From the NCBI RefSeq assembly GCF_036507355.1, contig NZ_AP027877.1: 64,000 nucleotides of DNA; one strand, 5' to 3'. This document shows, one piece after another, positions 1-35,287 of this stretch (within the stretch, counting starts at the first letter, position 1; each line of letters starts with the position of its first letter). The translations under genes were made by a program, and so were the position numbers. The notes beneath the pieces are model-generated. The model was not told the DNA's origin and did not search any database. It saw nothing but the letters and a program-made list of their open reading frames with translations. The stretch comes from Escherichia coli. GTDB lineage: Bacteria; Pseudomonadota; Gammaproteobacteria; Enterobacterales; Enterobacteriaceae.

Positions 1-1641
1 CGCGAACTGGCGGTACAGGTTGCTGAAGCAATGACGGATTTCTCTAAACACATGCGCGGCGTAAATGTGGTTGCCCTGTACGGCGGCCAGCGTTATGACG
101 TGCAATTACGCGCCCTGCGTCAGGGGCCGCAGATCGTTGTCGGTACTCCGGGCCGTCTGCTGGACCACCTGAAACGTGGCACTCTGGACCTCTCTAAACT
201 GAGCGGTCTGGTTCTGGATGAAGCTGACGAAATGCTGCGCATGGGCTTCATCGAAGACGTTGAAACTATTATGGCGCAGATCCCGGAAGGTCATCAGACC
301 GCTCTGTTCTCTGCAACCATGCCGGAAGCGATTCGTCGCATTACCCGCCGCTTTATGAAAGAGCCGCAGGAAGTGCGCATTCAGTCCAGCGTGACTACCC
401 GTCCTGACATCAGCCAGAGCTACTGGACTGTCTGGGGTATGCGTAAAAACGAAGCACTGGTACGTTTCCTGGAAGCGGAAGATTTTGATGCGGCGATTAT
501 CTTCGTTCGTACCAAAAATGCGACTCTGGAAGTGGCTGAAGCTCTTGAGCGTAACGGCTACAACAGCGCCGCGCTGAACGGTGACATGAACCAGGCGCTG
601 CGTGAGCAGACACTGGAACGCCTGAAAGATGGTCGTCTGGACATCCTGATTGCGACCGACGTTGCAGCCCGTGGCCTGGACGTTGAGCGTATCAGCCTGG
701 TGGTTAACTACGATATCCCGATGGATTCTGAGTCTTACGTTCACCGTATCGGTCGTACCGGTCGTGCGGGTCGTGCTGGCCGCGCGCTGTTGTTCGTTGA
801 GAACCGCGAGCGTCGTCTGCTGCGCAACATTGAACGTACTATGAAGCTGACTATTCCGGAAGTAGAACTGCCGAACGCAGAACTGCTGGGCAAACGCCGT
901 CTGGAAAAATTCGCCGCTAAAGTACAGCAGCAGCTGGAAAGCAGCGATCTGGATCAATACCGCGCACTGCTGAGCAAAATTCAGCCGACTGCAGAAGGTG
1001 AAGAGCTGGATCTCGAAACTCTGGCCGCCGCACTGCTGAAAATGGCACAGGGTGAACGTACTCTGATTGTTCCGCCAGATGCGCCGATGCGTCCGAAACG
1101 TGAATTCCGTGATCGTGATGACCGTGGTCCGCGCGATCGTAACGACCGTGGCCCGCGTGGCGACCGTGAAGATCGTCCGCGTCGTGAACGTCGTGATGTT
1201 GGTGACATGCAGCTGTACCGCATTGAAGTGGGCCGCGATGATGGTGTTGAAGTTCGTCATATCGTTGGCGCGATTGCTAACGAAGGCGACATCAGCAGCC
1301 GTTACATCGGTAACATCAAGCTGTTTGCTTCTCACTCCACCATCGAACTGCCGAAAGGTATGCCGGGTGAAGTGCTGCAACACTTTACGCGCACTCGCAT
1401 CCTCAACAAACCGATGAATATGCAGTTGCTGGGCGATGCACAGCCGCATACTGGCGGTGAGCGTCGTGGCGGTGGTCGTGGTTTCAGTGGCGAGCGTCGT
1501 GAAGGCGGTCGTAACTTTAGCGGTGAACGCCGTGAAGGTGGTCGTGGTGATGGTCGTCGTTTTAGCGGTGAACGTCGTGAAGGCCGCGCTCCGCGTCGTG
1601 ATGACTCTACCGGTCGTCGTCGTTTTGGTGGTGATGCGTAA
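1..1641 (+). CDS. deaD: DEAD-box ATP-dependent RNA helicase DeaD (CsdA), 5' end outside the window
   Basis: ORF 31..1641 is in frame from position 1. Translation matches the C-terminal ~535 aa of DeaD as recalled, including the [11 protein letters not shown] repeat tail. Confidence 0.93.
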
Positions 1642-1666: not shown

Positions 1667-1684
1667 TGTAAAATAATATATACA
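1667..1684 (+). promoter_or_regulatory. TyrR-box-like palindrome TGTAAA-N6-TATACA upstream of mtr
   Basis: Sequence tgtaaaataatatataca fits the TyrR box consensus TGTAAA-N6-TTTACA at 11 of 12 positions. mtr is a known TyrR regulon member. Confidence 0.45.
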
Positions 1685-1716
1685 GCCCCGATTTGAACCA
1701 TCGGGGCTTTTTTTCT
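1685..1716 (+). terminator. Rho-independent terminator of deaD
   Basis: GC-rich hairpin gccccgat/atcggggc with a 7-nt loop, followed by a T-run of 8, about 45 bp after the deaD stop. Confidence 0.75.
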
Positions 1717-15182: not shown

Positions 15183-15485
15183 CTAAACAATTAGTCTTTT
15201 TAGTGAGCCGAACAGATCGATGCCGATAGCATTTGCATAGCTAAAAACAACATCTAATGTTGGTGAACTTTCTCCTTTTTCAAATTTACTCACCGCTTGT
15301 CGGGTAACACCAAGTTGCTTCGCCACGGCAGTTTGGCTCAGATTGAGGGCTTTGCGTTTTTCCACGAGTTGGGAAAGAACCGCTTTGCGTTGTACAACAA
15401 CATCAAGAGCATTAGCGGTTGCTTCGTCCTTAAGTAATTCTGTTTTCACGTCTTCCCAGTGATGTAACTCGTTATTTTTCTTCAT
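15183..15485 (-). CDS. XRE-family helix-turn-helix protein, putative HigA-like antitoxin
   Basis: 100-aa ORF with HTH signature LSQTAVAKQLGVTRQAVSKFEKGE; 23 bp downstream of the toxin-like gene on the same strand. Confidence 0.7.
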   Translation of the reverse strand: MKKNNELHHWEDVKTELLKDEATANALDVVVQRKAVLSQLVEKRKALNLSQTAVAKQLGVTRQAVSKFEKGESSPTLDVVFSYANAIGIDLFGSLKRLIV

Positions 15486-15508
15486 TTCTATTTCTCCTGG
15501 AGGCTTGC

Positions 15509-15868
15509 TTAGTTTGTCGAAAGTAAGGCCTTATAACGTGCTAAACCTAACTCGATGTTGGCTTTAGGCGTTTTGTTCGTTTTTTTAGCAAAGATATGTG
15601 TGATGACCCATAGCCCTTGATGAAAGTGAAAATAAAAACCCCTTAACCAATGGCTCTGACTATGTGTTTTAATTTCATACATATCCCCTTGAACTTTTTC
15701 GGTATTCACCAGGGAAGAGCAGGGACCTAACTCTTCGAAATCGTCAATAGCAGCAATGAATTCCGCTCGATCGATTGCACTAAGATCAAACAATTCCTTT
15801 CTGGCCACACTTAACAGCATGACTGGAAAATTTTTATCACGTTTTTTGTTAGTCTGATTTTTCACCAT
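15509..15868 (-). CDS. Gp49-like RelE/ParE-superfamily (HigB-like) toxin
   Basis: C-terminal segment FYFHFHQGLWVITHIFAKKTNKTPKANIELGLARY resembles the conserved Gp49-like toxin core as recalled. Start is ambiguous: the ORF extends to 15961 (150 aa); I favour the M32 start at 15868 (119 aa). Confidence 0.6.
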   Translation of the reverse strand: MVKNQTNKKRDKNFPVMLLSVARKELFDLSAIDRAEFIAAIDDFEELGPCSSLVNTEKVQGDMYEIKTHSQSHWLRGFYFHFHQGLWVITHIFAKKTNKTPKANIELGLARYKALLSTN

Positions 15869-15991
15869 CTTTTTGTCAACCTTTAGGTTTACATTGTGAT
15901 GACATAATAACGGAGGACGTTCATACTGAACCGGAACGAAGTGCTCAAAACTCATGAGCACTTTTCTTATTTTTCCGGGCTAAGGGGGATG

Positions 15992-16759
15992 TTAACGACG
16001 ACACATCTCATCAATCACGCATGTGAAATGGTTATGCAGCCATAAAAACGAAGCCGGGATAGCGGTGGAGACTTTAGCCGTGAGAAAACGTTCTGTCGCA
16101 TCCTGCTTTCCTTCGCCAGTCACCAGTAACAAAACTTCGCGGGCAGTGAGAATATCTTTCAAACCTAAGGTGATCCCCCGGGTAACGGGGCGACCTGCGG
16201 TTTTTAACATCTCATGTTGCTGTGTTCTGGCATCAAGTTGGCTGATATGGCAGGCCGGTTGCAGGCTTTCTCCCGGTTCGTTCAGCCCCAGATGACCGTT
16301 TTTCCCCAGCCCAAGCATGCACAAATCGATACCACCTTTGAGCGCAATCAGGTTCGTTACCCGCTCACACTCTGTCTCGTTAATATCTTCAGAGCGAAAG
16401 CTGATGAACTGGTCTTCACGTAGCCCCAGCGGCTGTACGATATGTTGTTGAAGGAAGGTTTCGCAAGTGCCGGGCAGAGTTAATGGCAGATCCACCCATT
16501 CATCGAGTTTGACGACGGTGAGCTGGCTGACATCAACGTGCTGCTGGTGGATTTTTTCTACCAGATAATGATACGTCAGTAATGGCGTGGCTCCGGTCGC
16601 CAGGCAAATCACGGCATCCGGTTTGCTACGGATCACGGCCAATAAATATTCGCTGGCACGTTCACTTAACGCCGTATAGTTTTCAACTTGCTGAAGGGTT
16701 TGCACAGGATGAAATTCCTTAAGTAAAGGGGCACCGCCAGACGCAGTGCCTCGTTCCAT
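15992..16759 (-). CDS. agaI: Putative galactosamine-6-phosphate deaminase/isomerase AgaI
   Basis: 255-aa ORF; NagB-like; last gene of the agaS-kbaY-agaBCDI operon. Confidence 0.85.
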   Translation of the reverse strand: MERGTASGGAPLLKEFHPVQTLQQVENYTALSERASEYLLAVIRSKPDAVICLATGATPLLTYHYLVEKIHQQHVDVSQLTVVKLDEWVDLPLTLPGTCETFLQQHIVQPLGLREDQFISFRSEDINETECERVTNLIALKGGIDLCMLGLGKNGHLGLNEPGESLQPACHISQLDARTQQHEMLKTAGRPVTRGITLGLKDILTAREVLLLVTGEGKQDATERFLTAKVSTAIPASFLWLHNHFTCVIDEMCRR

Positions 16760-17551
16760 TTACAAAATGCCGAATGCGGAACAAACAATAGAGAGCACAA
16801 AAGTCACGCCGATTAACAGCACCGGATGCGCTTTTTTCACCCGCAGGAAGTAATACATCAGCAGGGTGTAGGCCATCGGTAAAATGTTCGGGAAGACTTT
16901 ATCGAAGAAATCCTGTTGCAGCGCGACGCTGTGGGTACTGTCGATGGCAAACGATGTCACCACGTTAATATGCACATACGAAGCGATCAGCCCGCCGATT
17001 ACCGTGATCCCGAGGATGGTTGCCGAACGGGCAATCATCTGCGAGTTCTCTCGCACTTTATCGATCGCCTTCACGCCGACTGAATAACCAACGTGGGTCC
17101 AGCTGACGCGCAGGAAAAAGATAAGCAGGTAAACGGCGAAAAATAGAATCGGCCCCAGCAGGTTTCCCTGGCTGGCAAATGATGAGCAAATTCCCGCCAT
17201 AATCGGCAACAAAGTAAACCAGAAAATCGCATCGCCAATCCCGGCGATTGGGCCAAACAGTGCCACTTTGAGGCCTTTAATGGTGTCGCGGTTTTCTCCT
17301 TTTTCTTCCATCGAAATTAATAACCCCATCAGGAATCCGACCAGATTCGGGTGGGTATTAATAAATTCGAGGTTATCTTTCATCGCTGCGCTTAGGCCCG
17401 GTTTGTCATCCTTATAAATCTTTTTTAGGATCGGCAACATCGCCCAGGTAAAACCGCCCGCTTGCATCCTTTCGTAGTTAAAGCTCGCTTGCAGCAGCGA
17501 CGAACGAAAGCCCAGACGGGTGATATCTTTTTTACTGATTTCAGATCCCAT
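16760..17551 (-). CDS. agaD: PTS galactosamine-specific EIID component AgaD
   Basis: ORF 16760..17698; start placed at MGSEISKKDITRLGF (263 aa). Confidence 0.85.
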   Translation of the reverse strand: MGSEISKKDITRLGFRSSLLQASFNYERMQAGGFTWAMLPILKKIYKDDKPGLSAAMKDNLEFINTHPNLVGFLMGLLISMEEKGENRDTIKGLKVALFGPIAGIGDAIFWFTLLPIMAGICSSFASQGNLLGPILFFAVYLLIFFLRVSWTHVGYSVGVKAIDKVRENSQMIARSATILGITVIGGLIASYVHINVVTSFAIDSTHSVALQQDFFDKVFPNILPMAYTLLMYYFLRVKKAHPVLLIGVTFVLSIVCSAFGIL

Positions 17552-18344
17552 TGCTGTAGTCCTCTTCTTCATTTTTACTGGCAACGGGCTGCGGTTGCGC
17601 TTGCTGCCGGGATTTCGCATTGAAAAACTCATACACCGCAAAGCCTGCGCCCAGTACGGCAACCGGCAACAGGTTGCTGACCTGGATGTAGCAAACAAAC
17701 AGGAAACCGGCGATCAGGTAAGGGATATATTGCGCTTTGAACATTACGCGCAGCAGCAAGCCAAAACCAACGGCAGGCAGAATACCGCCAGCCACTTCAA
17801 AGCCGTGGGTCAACCAGGCGGGCATCGCTTTCACCAGCGCCTGCATCGCCCCTTGTGCCAGGTAAGTACAGAGGAAAGCAATCACCGCATATGCTGAAGC
17901 GACGATGAGCATCGTTGTCCAGTTAAGCCGGGAAAATGCTGCCGTATCCGCCTCTTTCGCGCATTTATCGGCTTTGGTCATAAATAATGAGAAAGCGGAA
18001 TAGAAGAACAGAATGACGTACTGCATTAACAAACTAAACGGTAGGCCAAGACCAATTGCCGTTTTGGCATCAACGCCCGTAGACCATGCAATGACGGTGG
18101 TCATCAGACCCGCCATAATAGGGTTGGGCGGCTGAACACCACCTGCAGGGGTTAATCCGGCGAAAGCCAACTCTGTCAGACCACCGGTAATTAAGCCAGT
18201 CTGAATATCACCGAGAATAGCGCCAGTTAGGGTACAAACGATTATCGGGCGGAATAAAAATAAGGCTTCCAGCCAAAAATCAATCCCCAGAACGAAAACT
18301 AACGCCGCCAGGGATAATCCCTGAAGTAGGGTTATTTCATGCAT
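17541..18344 (-). CDS. agaC: PTS galactosamine-specific EIIC component AgaC
   Basis: 267-aa hydrophobic ORF; mannose-family IIC. Confidence 0.85.
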   Translation of the reverse strand: MHEITLLQGLSLAALVFVLGIDFWLEALFLFRPIIVCTLTGAILGDIQTGLITGGLTELAFAGLTPAGGVQPPNPIMAGLMTTVIAWSTGVDAKTAIGLGLPFSLLMQYVILFFYSAFSLFMTKADKCAKEADTAAFSRLNWTTMLIVASAYAVIAFLCTYLAQGAMQALVKAMPAWLTHGFEVAGGILPAVGFGLLLRVMFKAQYIPYLIAGFLFVCYIQVSNLLPVAVLGAGFAVYEFFNAKSRQQAQPQPVASKNEEEDYSNGI

Positions 18345-18382
18345 TTTTATTACCTCAAACCAATATTAAGGCGATTTTAGAT

Positions 18383-18859
18383 TTAGTCAGGGATTTGTTC
18401 TTTTTGATCGCCAGGGACGTCCTGAATGAAAACATTCACGCCACGTTGTTTAATAAAACGTAAGTCCGTGAGATCCTGGTCATCGACATAAACTTTACTG
18501 CTGATTTGCTTTTTCCCTTCCGAGAAATGCATATTGCCGACGTTGACCTCTTTCAGGTCAATGCCACCTTCTACCAATTTACGTACCGTTTGTGGCGTAC
18601 GGCAAATCAGGAAGATCTTCTGATGCGGTGCAGCTTTGCCGATGACGTTAATGGTTTTTTCGATAGTAAAGAAACGAATGCCAAAGCCGTAGGTTTCTGC
18701 GGTAATACCCATTAATTTCTGTTGAATATCATCGTTAGCGACAACATCATCCACGACTACCAGCAGATTCGCACCGATGGTGGATGTCCAGGTCACGCCA
18801 ACCTGACCGTGAACCAGACGGTTATCAATACGGGTTAAGAGAATATTTGGACTGCTCAT
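18383..18859 (-). CDS. agaB: PTS galactosamine-specific EIIB component AgaB
   Basis: 158-aa ORF; mannose-family IIB N-terminus NILLTRIDNRLVHGQ. Confidence 0.85.
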   Translation of the reverse strand: MSSPNILLTRIDNRLVHGQVGVTWTSTIGANLLVVVDDVVANDDIQQKLMGITAETYGFGIRFFTIEKTINVIGKAAPHQKIFLICRTPQTVRKLVEGGIDLKEVNVGNMHFSEGKKQISSKVYVDDQDLTDLRFIKQRGVNVFIQDVPGDQKEQIPD

Positions 18860-19025
18860 TGTGTAATCCTCACCATAAAGTTGAATAATATAATTTTTTT
18901 AAATATATTATTGTTGCGATATTGTACTGATGTATTTATTAAGGTTTAGTCATCTCCTTTTCCATTAAGGCACTCCCCGATATTAATCGGGAAGTACATT
19001 GGGATAAATCATAAAAAACTAATGA

Positions 19026-19898
<873 letters not shown>

Positions 19899-34741: not shown

Positions 34742-35118
<377 letters not shown>

Positions 35119-35127
35119 GATTTACGT

Positions 35128-35157
35128 AAAAACCCGCTTCGGCGGGTTTTTGCTTTT
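35128..35157 (+). terminator. rnpB rho-independent terminator
   Basis: Hairpin acccgc-ttcg-gcgggt followed by ttttgctttt. Confidence 0.7.
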
Positions 35158-35287
35158 GGAGGGGCAGAAAGATGAATGACTGTCCACGACGCTATACCCA
35201 AAAGAAAGCGGCTTATCGGTCAGTTTCACCTGATGTACGTAATAAACCGTTCCGGCGGGTTTCAGATTGTTGAGTGCGCTTTATTCA

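Follow-up and report, generated by a model that had tools for sequence, protein, structure and literature searches.

Does the repetitive DNA at the 3′ end of deaD behave as a contingency locus, changing the length of the encoded tail rapidly, or is it the remnant of an old peptide repeat in which length changes only occasionally? The question is raised by a 64-kb stretch of Escherichia coli DNA, referred to here as the window, which begins inside deaD. A sequence-only reading of the window had described a nucleotide-level tandem repeat encoding the ‘RGG tail of DeaD’, and had suggested that changes in repeat number, leaving the frame intact, might amount to contingency-like variation of an RNA-binding tail.

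The gene and its C-terminal tail

The gene, which encodes the cold-shock DEAD-box RNA helicase DeaD (CsdA), had been named correctly. In E. coli genomes deaD is the RefSeq label under every match of the region, with mtr next downstream, and the full Pfam set for DeaD—DEAD, Helicase_C, DeaD_dimer, DbpA and DeaD_C—is found above the gathering cut-offs in the open reading frame (ORF) at 31–1641 (Table 1). The DbpA-type RNA-binding domain has been solved as PDB 5b88; it is near-invariant in 33 Enterobacterales sequences and is folded in an AlphaFold model. Beyond it lies a tail that matches PF12343 (‘DeaD helicase C-terminal disordered region’) with a score of 46.0 bits against a cut-off of 23.3, over profile positions 1–62 of 62. 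The tail stands at the extreme C-terminus, and the DEAD, Helicase_C, DeaD_dimer and DbpA-type domains all lie upstream of it in the same ORF, which is the arrangement expected of a PF12343 member.

The PDB fragments of DeaD (5gju, 5gi4 and 5b88) match the ORF, and their coverage ends at the RNA-binding domain; no PDB chain covering the tail was found. In an AlphaFold2 model made from a 33-sequence alignment the RNA-binding domain folds, while model residues 82–148 have pLDDT values below 50 and are without secondary structure. The tail is predicted, on the strength of this model, to lack stable structure, in keeping with the disorder by which PF12343 is described. The feature is a known member of the catalogued DeaD_C disordered region; indeed the gene, its domain layout and its disordered tail have all been catalogued already.

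The 63 residues that follow QPH comprise 19 Arg, 19 Gly and 11 Asp or Glu (29% Arg, 29% Gly), and the net charge of the tail is only about +8. Counts of short peptides in the tail are one RGG, three GGR, three RG and six GR. An Arg/Gly-rich tail is thus encoded, as the sequence-only reading had it; the term ‘RGG tail’ is less apt for a sequence with one RGG tripeptide and three GGR.

Three further features of the region may be recorded here. The hairpin between deaD and mtr (1684–1715) looks bidirectional and terminator-like. An antisense ORF at 1332–1769 (− strand; 145 aa, with many Pro, Arg and Ser residues) was not accepted as a gene, since it mirrors the Arg/Gly codons and had no other evidence in its favour. 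A search of Rfam returned no RNA family in or near the tail repeat.

Table 1. Positions of deaD features in the window (numbered from the first nucleotide of the window)
Feature	Position	Strand	Remarks
3′ part of deaD/csdA CDS	1..1641	+	5′ end cut by window edge; stop TAA 1639–1641; ORF 31..1641
Second codon-phased tandem repeat, 24 nt × 2, in Arg/Asp-rich linker of the same C-terminal extension	1111..1157	+	TRF score 73
DbpA-type RNA-binding domain (RRM-like)	1216..1425	+	PF03880, 73.9 bits, ORF aa 396–465; adjoins tail
U0, degenerate leading unit	1450..1482	+	7–8/11 residues common with U1, U2; site of natural +15 GGERR duplication
Disordered Arg/Gly/Glu-rich C-terminal tail (DeaD_C)	1453..1638	+	PF12343, ORF aa 475–536
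U1	1483..1515	+	left partner of −33 and −78 fusions; site of +12 REGG duplication
U2	1516..1548	+	quoted 30-mer at 1516..1545; taken out in −33 allele
Spacer GDGRR, 15 nt	1546..1560	+	interrupts 33-nt period between U2 and U3
U3	1561..1593	+	right partner of −78 fusion; 14-nt exact repeat with U2 (1516/1561)
Intrinsic-terminator-like hairpin and T-run after deaD	1684..1715	+	9-pair stem, 6 GC pairs, then TTTTTTT

Anatomy of the repeat

Three 11-codon units of the FSGERREGG type, together with one degenerate leading unit, span 1450–1593 and so fall within the last 63 codons of deaD. TRF reports an array at 1454–1548 with a period of 33, 2.9 copies, 72% matches and a score of 106, the top-scoring tandem array of the whole window. 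Only two arrays in the 64 kb score 70 or more, this one and that of the deaD linker (1111–1157). The 30-mer quoted in the sequence-only reading, tttagcggtgaacgccgtgaaggtggtcgt, is located exactly in U2. The same reading had counted about three copies of a unit of about 36 bp; the count stands, with the degenerate U0 in addition, and the length requires correction, since the period is 33 nt from U1 to U2 and 45 nt from U2 to U3, the third copy being shifted by the 15-nt spacer.

In a region so rich in two residues, the repeat might be thought merely compositional low complexity. Shuffles that preserve composition argue against this: the lag-33 identity of 45/66 was reached in 1 of 20,000 codon shuffles, and the exact 10-residue peptide repeat in none of 20,000 residue shuffles. 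The tandem repeat in the tail is beyond chance and is not a by-product of composition.

Conserved as peptide, diverged as DNA

U1 and U2 are identical at 10 of 11 residues, yet six of these ten identical residues are encoded by different codons. Independent draws from deaD’s own codon usage would give 4.4 differences in ten, and the synonymous sites between the copies are therefore saturated. To call the repeat ‘nucleotide-level’ was an overstatement, as any two of the 33-nt units match at only 19–26 of 33 nucleotides (58–79%) and no exact direct repeat in the window’s tail is longer than 14 nt (U2/U3, spacing 45).

Within Escherichia (E. coli, E. albertii and E. whittamii), orthologous units are identical at 25–29 of 30 nt, compared with 19–25 for paralogous units. 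Each unit is thus closest to its orthologous unit, from which it follows that the copies are not being homogenised. Within the genus the 30-nt units can be paired clearly with their orthologues, but for Salmonella and Klebsiella the comparison is saturated, and deeper orthology therefore rests on the spacers and the conserved order of units. In 33 Enterobacterales orthologues, three GERRE cores and the PRRDD...RRRFGGDA end keep their positions and indels fall between them, the tails varying from 65 to 95 aa in length between genera. The spacer is kept as GDGRR, SEGRR or GEGRR in Salmonella, Klebsiella and Enterobacter. Because the unit order is common across Enterobacterales, the triplication is old; the order has been conserved since before the split of Escherichia, Salmonella and Klebsiella. 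Another genus provides an example of a fresh duplication in the same tail: in Serratia oryzae (L036), a 40-nt exact direct repeat with a spacing of 42 encodes a duplicated 14-residue GERREGAGAPRRSF block.

Length variants among E. coli genomes

The strain comparison of repeat length proposed in the sequence-only reading was run on 5,426 complete E. coli genomes; the tail region is present in 5,425 of these, and one genome is without any match to it. With the common (K-12-like) 160-nt allele as query, genomes were sorted by bands of identity and coverage, which placed 5,261 genomes at 95% identity or above and 162 at 90–95%, the band that a 12–15-nt indel yields; 24 genomes had less than 80% coverage. 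Further typing made use of allele-specific queries and of a 56-nt junction probe that has no 28-mer in common with normal alleles. The −33 and −78 alleles, for which a split alignment still reaches 100% coverage, were typed from matches in one piece and from the spans of the records.

The comparison returned five in-frame length variants and, at the same time, a canonical tail length in about 96.6% of the 5,426 genomes, with about 3.4% variant (up to about three more variant genomes are possible). The five were recognised by aligning representatives. The most frequent is a +12 allele in which REGG is duplicated, found in 158–160 genomes as one haplotype. The −78 allele, in which U1 is fused to U3 with the loss of 26 aa, occurs in 21 genomes and on at least three haplotypes. 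The remaining three were each found in one genome: +15 (GGERR duplicated), −33 (exactly one unit lost) and −132 (44 aa lost). The expectation that repeat number could change without a frameshift was thus confirmed, −33 being the loss of a unit and −78 a fusion of two, with all variants in frame and present in independent assemblies.

A far larger collection contains the exact variant proteins on at least 1000 contigs for +12, at least 1000 for +15, 687 for −78 (names among them include Shigella boydii), 125 for −33 and 4 for −132. It also holds a second 618-aa variant besides the −33 protein. A 650-aa cluster member that was considered as a tail expansion was rejected, since it proved to be the +12 allele with its start annotated further upstream.

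Two segments of the same length served as controls, one in the helicase core and one in the Arg/Asp-rich (RD) linker, which has its own 24-nt repeat. All 5,425 genomes covered the helicase-core control in full, and the rows listed for it included no length variant. The RD-linker control gave six records below 95% identity, two of which were verified as natural in-frame insertions at the linker repeat: +24 in APEC E18005 and +18 in NCCP 13914. All seven deaD indels observed are multiples of three, and the ORF stays intact.

Three of the variants are singletons among complete genomes, and errors of assembly in a repetitive stretch might be suspected of producing them. Against this, each variant protein recurs exactly on independent contigs of several sources, their number running from 4 to at least 1000, and all variants are multiples of 3 nt with junctions bounded by repeats. 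The shuffles and the independent contigs between them already refute the idea that repeat or variants are artefacts, and the probability left to it is close to nil.

A period of 33 nt, an allele that drops one unit and another that fuses U1 to U3 are the properties of a VNTR-like coding minisatellite. The best description of the tail is a low-polymorphism coding minisatellite in a disordered region, with a probable slippage hotspot, the variant share of about 3.4% including non-unit indels. A search of the literature on tandem-repeat or in-frame polymorphism of deaD found nothing relevant, which is not proof of absence.

Over 1381–1680 the window’s own allele is only 95–96% identical to most E. 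coli, 21 genomes reach at least 99%, and the identity to TB06052 (Galapagos fresh water) is 100%. The encoded tail protein is that of ‘Escherichia sp. E1V33’. One record of the E. coli collection has a deaD-like copy on a plasmid.

Two observations were made elsewhere in the window during comparison with TB06052, to which it is otherwise 99% identical. Positions 15207–19047 are not collinear with that genome, in which an MBL-fold hydrolase, a LysR regulator and a malX/malY-like segment occupy the place; a strain-specific replacement seems to have occurred between rsmI and the aga cluster. The RNase P RNA gene rnpB (class A, 318.6 bits) lies at 34742–35118 (+), and its 3′ end and the sequence just downstream (35090–35262) align to TB06052 at two offsets 113 nt apart, which suggests that a repeat of about 113 nt following rnpB differs in copy number.

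Junctions, origins and inheritance of the variants

Every variant junction falls in a direct repeat. For −78 this is the 18-nt GGCGAACGTCGTGAAGGC, common to U1 and U3 of common alleles with a spacing of 78; for +15 it is the 8-nt TGGCGGTG, with a spacing of 15. The junction of −132 lies in GCGTCGTG, and those of −33 and +12 lie in CGTGAAGGNGG cores. All tail direct repeats of at least 9 nt, eight in the window allele and five in the K-12-like one, have spacings divisible by three, and it is because of this that misalignment gives in-frame products. RecA-independent slipped misalignment between short direct repeats has been described for E. coli lacI and in plasmid assays. Slippage of this kind, or a process guided by microhomology, may likewise be responsible for the indels in the tail.

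The three or more −78 haplotypes differ at up to 121 of 3,222 positions, SNPs adjoining the junction included. As the deletion is found on clearly different haplotypes, it has recurred, and it has done so at the longest repeat (18 nt). Recurrence at the longest repeat is what slipped misalignment would predict, although positive selection or short-tract recombination, instead of mutational bias alone, could also be involved.

The +12 allele has a different history. Four carriers from different hosts and countries show 0–9 differences among themselves, compared with 32–44 to other strains, which marks a single origin followed by stable inheritance. Its inserted 12-mer is of the GGT form and the neighbouring sequence of the GGC form. 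Since the insert is not an exact copy of its neighbour, simple slippage would need either an extra SNP or a GGT-type ancestor; the GGT-type form is seen in 26 normal-length genomes. Laboratory-derived series keep their allele, as seen in four EC0026B assemblies and, among those listed, in M12 and four capsule-mutant derivatives.

In the window allele an interruption shortens the 18-nt U1/U3 repeat to 12 nt and leaves the 14-nt U2/U3 repeat (spacing 45) as the longest. The −78 event should consequently be less likely in this allele.

These results bear on the question of contingency. The proposal would be that the repeat is a hypermutable switch—one that changes the length of the DeaD tail fast and so diversifies RNA binding within populations. 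In-frame variants in unit number do exist, −78 arose at least three times, and the tail is far richer in length variants than the helicase-core control of the same length. However, at synonymous sites the copies have diverged until saturated, leaving no long perfect tract on which to slip; units are 58–79% identical, and exact repeats do not exceed 14 nt in the window or 18 nt in common alleles. One length is found in 96.6% of genomes, the +12 allele is a single stable haplotype across many hosts and countries, laboratory-derived series keep their allele, and the unit order is older than the split of Escherichia, Salmonella and Klebsiella. Furthermore, deaD belongs to the housekeeping or cold-shock genes, has a cytoplasmic product and is not concerned with the surface or with host interaction. 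Three hallmarks of a contingency locus, a perfect tract, frequent variation among close relatives and an on/off or exposed-product change, are all missing here. The contingency-like variation put forward in the sequence-only reading is largely refuted by the census, and such a switch is very improbable. The DeaD tail is a mild, probably slippage-driven indel hotspot and not a fast-switching contingency locus.

Function of the tail and selection on its length

The C-terminal domain of CsdA is basic and has been considered a candidate annealing site or a secondary, non-specific RNA-binding site (PMC1616957, PMC3590231). A construct without the C-terminal tail was still active, according to the passage of PMC11850223 that cites Xu et al. 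2017. In vitro, DeaD undergoes phase separation; in vivo it forms condensates that have been linked to persistence (PMC12758526). In Pseudomonas, disordered regions define the function of the helicase RhlE (PMC11260450). In the literature searched, no experiment was found that assigns a function to residues 568–629 specifically. It is plausible from these reports that the repeat region forms an RNA-binding tail, a role that is putative for these residues, and we infer that the tail would serve as an auxiliary appendage for non-specific RNA binding, annealing or the promotion of condensates.

The length variants might themselves be selected, the gain and loss of modules fitting RNA binding, annealing or condensate valency to the niche. 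The presence of the same −78 allele on at least three backgrounds and on 687 contigs, Shigella boydii names included, is consistent with this, as is that of +12 and +15 each on at least 1000 contigs. So are the range of 65–95 aa between genera, the link between DeaD condensates and persistence (PMC12758526) and the precedent of RhlE (PMC11260450). However, the recurrence of −78 is exactly as predicted from the longest direct repeat (18 nt), so that mutational bias suffices to explain it, and contig abundance can reflect the sampling of successful clones. Adaptation of tail length to niche appears improbable. It is also unlikely that tail length is a selected, tunable property such that the recurrent removal by −78 of two of the three modules, and the clade-fixed +12 and +15, adjust tail valency in particular lineages. 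Were this true, altered RNA chaperoning or condensate behaviour would be expected, for example in cold growth or persistence.

The explanation that we prefer, and hold to be very probable, is that 1450–1593 encodes a disordered DeaD tail which descends from an ancient triplication and is selected as a peptide, and in which short repeats give rise to occasional, tolerated in-frame indels. The module is an 11-residue F-[SG]-G-E-R-R-E-G-G-R-x, triplicated long ago with one degenerate copy besides, and yields a positively charged tail. Selection would act on the peptide pattern and not on the DNA, which retains only short direct repeats of 8–18 nt. Owing to the codon-phased periodicity, the spacings of these repeats are all multiples of three. 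From time to time they may allow misalignment in replication or recombination, and the outcome would be in-frame duplications and deletions that the disordered tail can tolerate. The length variants themselves are probably near-neutral.

The discovery value of the locus is small, and the useful outcome is a clean negative on contingency. As a by-product, the census yielded a natural in-frame allele series: the 629-aa reference, +12, +15, −33, −78 and −132 in the tail, and +24 and +18 in the linker. The series was not found described in the literature searched and is ready-made for asking what the tail does; it also comes at a good moment, given the link reported between DeaD condensates and persistence. 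In addition, the locus illustrates neatly how the codon phasing of short direct repeats biases the indels of a disordered region toward staying in frame.

Comparison with known systems

Set beside PF12343 DeaD_C as catalogued by Pfam in E. coli DeaD/CsdA, the window shows nothing essentially different: the domain order is the same, and mtr lies downstream. It departs from the common E. coli DeaD_C in that U1 has FSGERR in place of the FGGERR of most E. coli, and in that its DNA is without the 18-nt U1/U3 repeat.

The eukaryotic RGG/RG-box tails of DEAD-box and RNA-binding proteins such as Ded1/DDX3, LAF-1, FUS and nucleolin resemble the DeaD tail in being disordered and rich in Arg and Gly; here the tail is carried by a helicase. 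Their roles are plausibly alike as well, with respect to non-specific RNA affinity, strand annealing and multivalency in condensates. RGG/RG boxes are defined by two or three RGG (or RG) repeats lying close together (di-/tri-RGG). The DeaD tail, in contrast, is built on the motif GERREGGR with regularly interspersed Glu and has one RGG and no di- or tri-RGG; it is Arg/Gly-rich, yet is not a canonical RGG box. E. coli is not known to have an arginine methylation system.

Bacterial contingency loci, such as those in which simple sequence repeats (SSRs) bring about phase variation in Neisseria, Haemophilus and Campylobacter, are similar to the DeaD tail in that a coding repeat changes in copy number. 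They differ from it in that the DeaD units are long (33 nt), few (three) and diverged, their copy number changes rarely and always in frame, and a cytoplasmic housekeeping helicase is the product.

In mutational behaviour the tail is like coding minisatellites and the deletion hotspots found at short direct repeats, with the difference that for DeaD the mechanism is read from junction sequences only. In both cases the junctions lie in short repeats, of 8–18 nt in deaD, and the longest repeat is the site of the most recurrent event.
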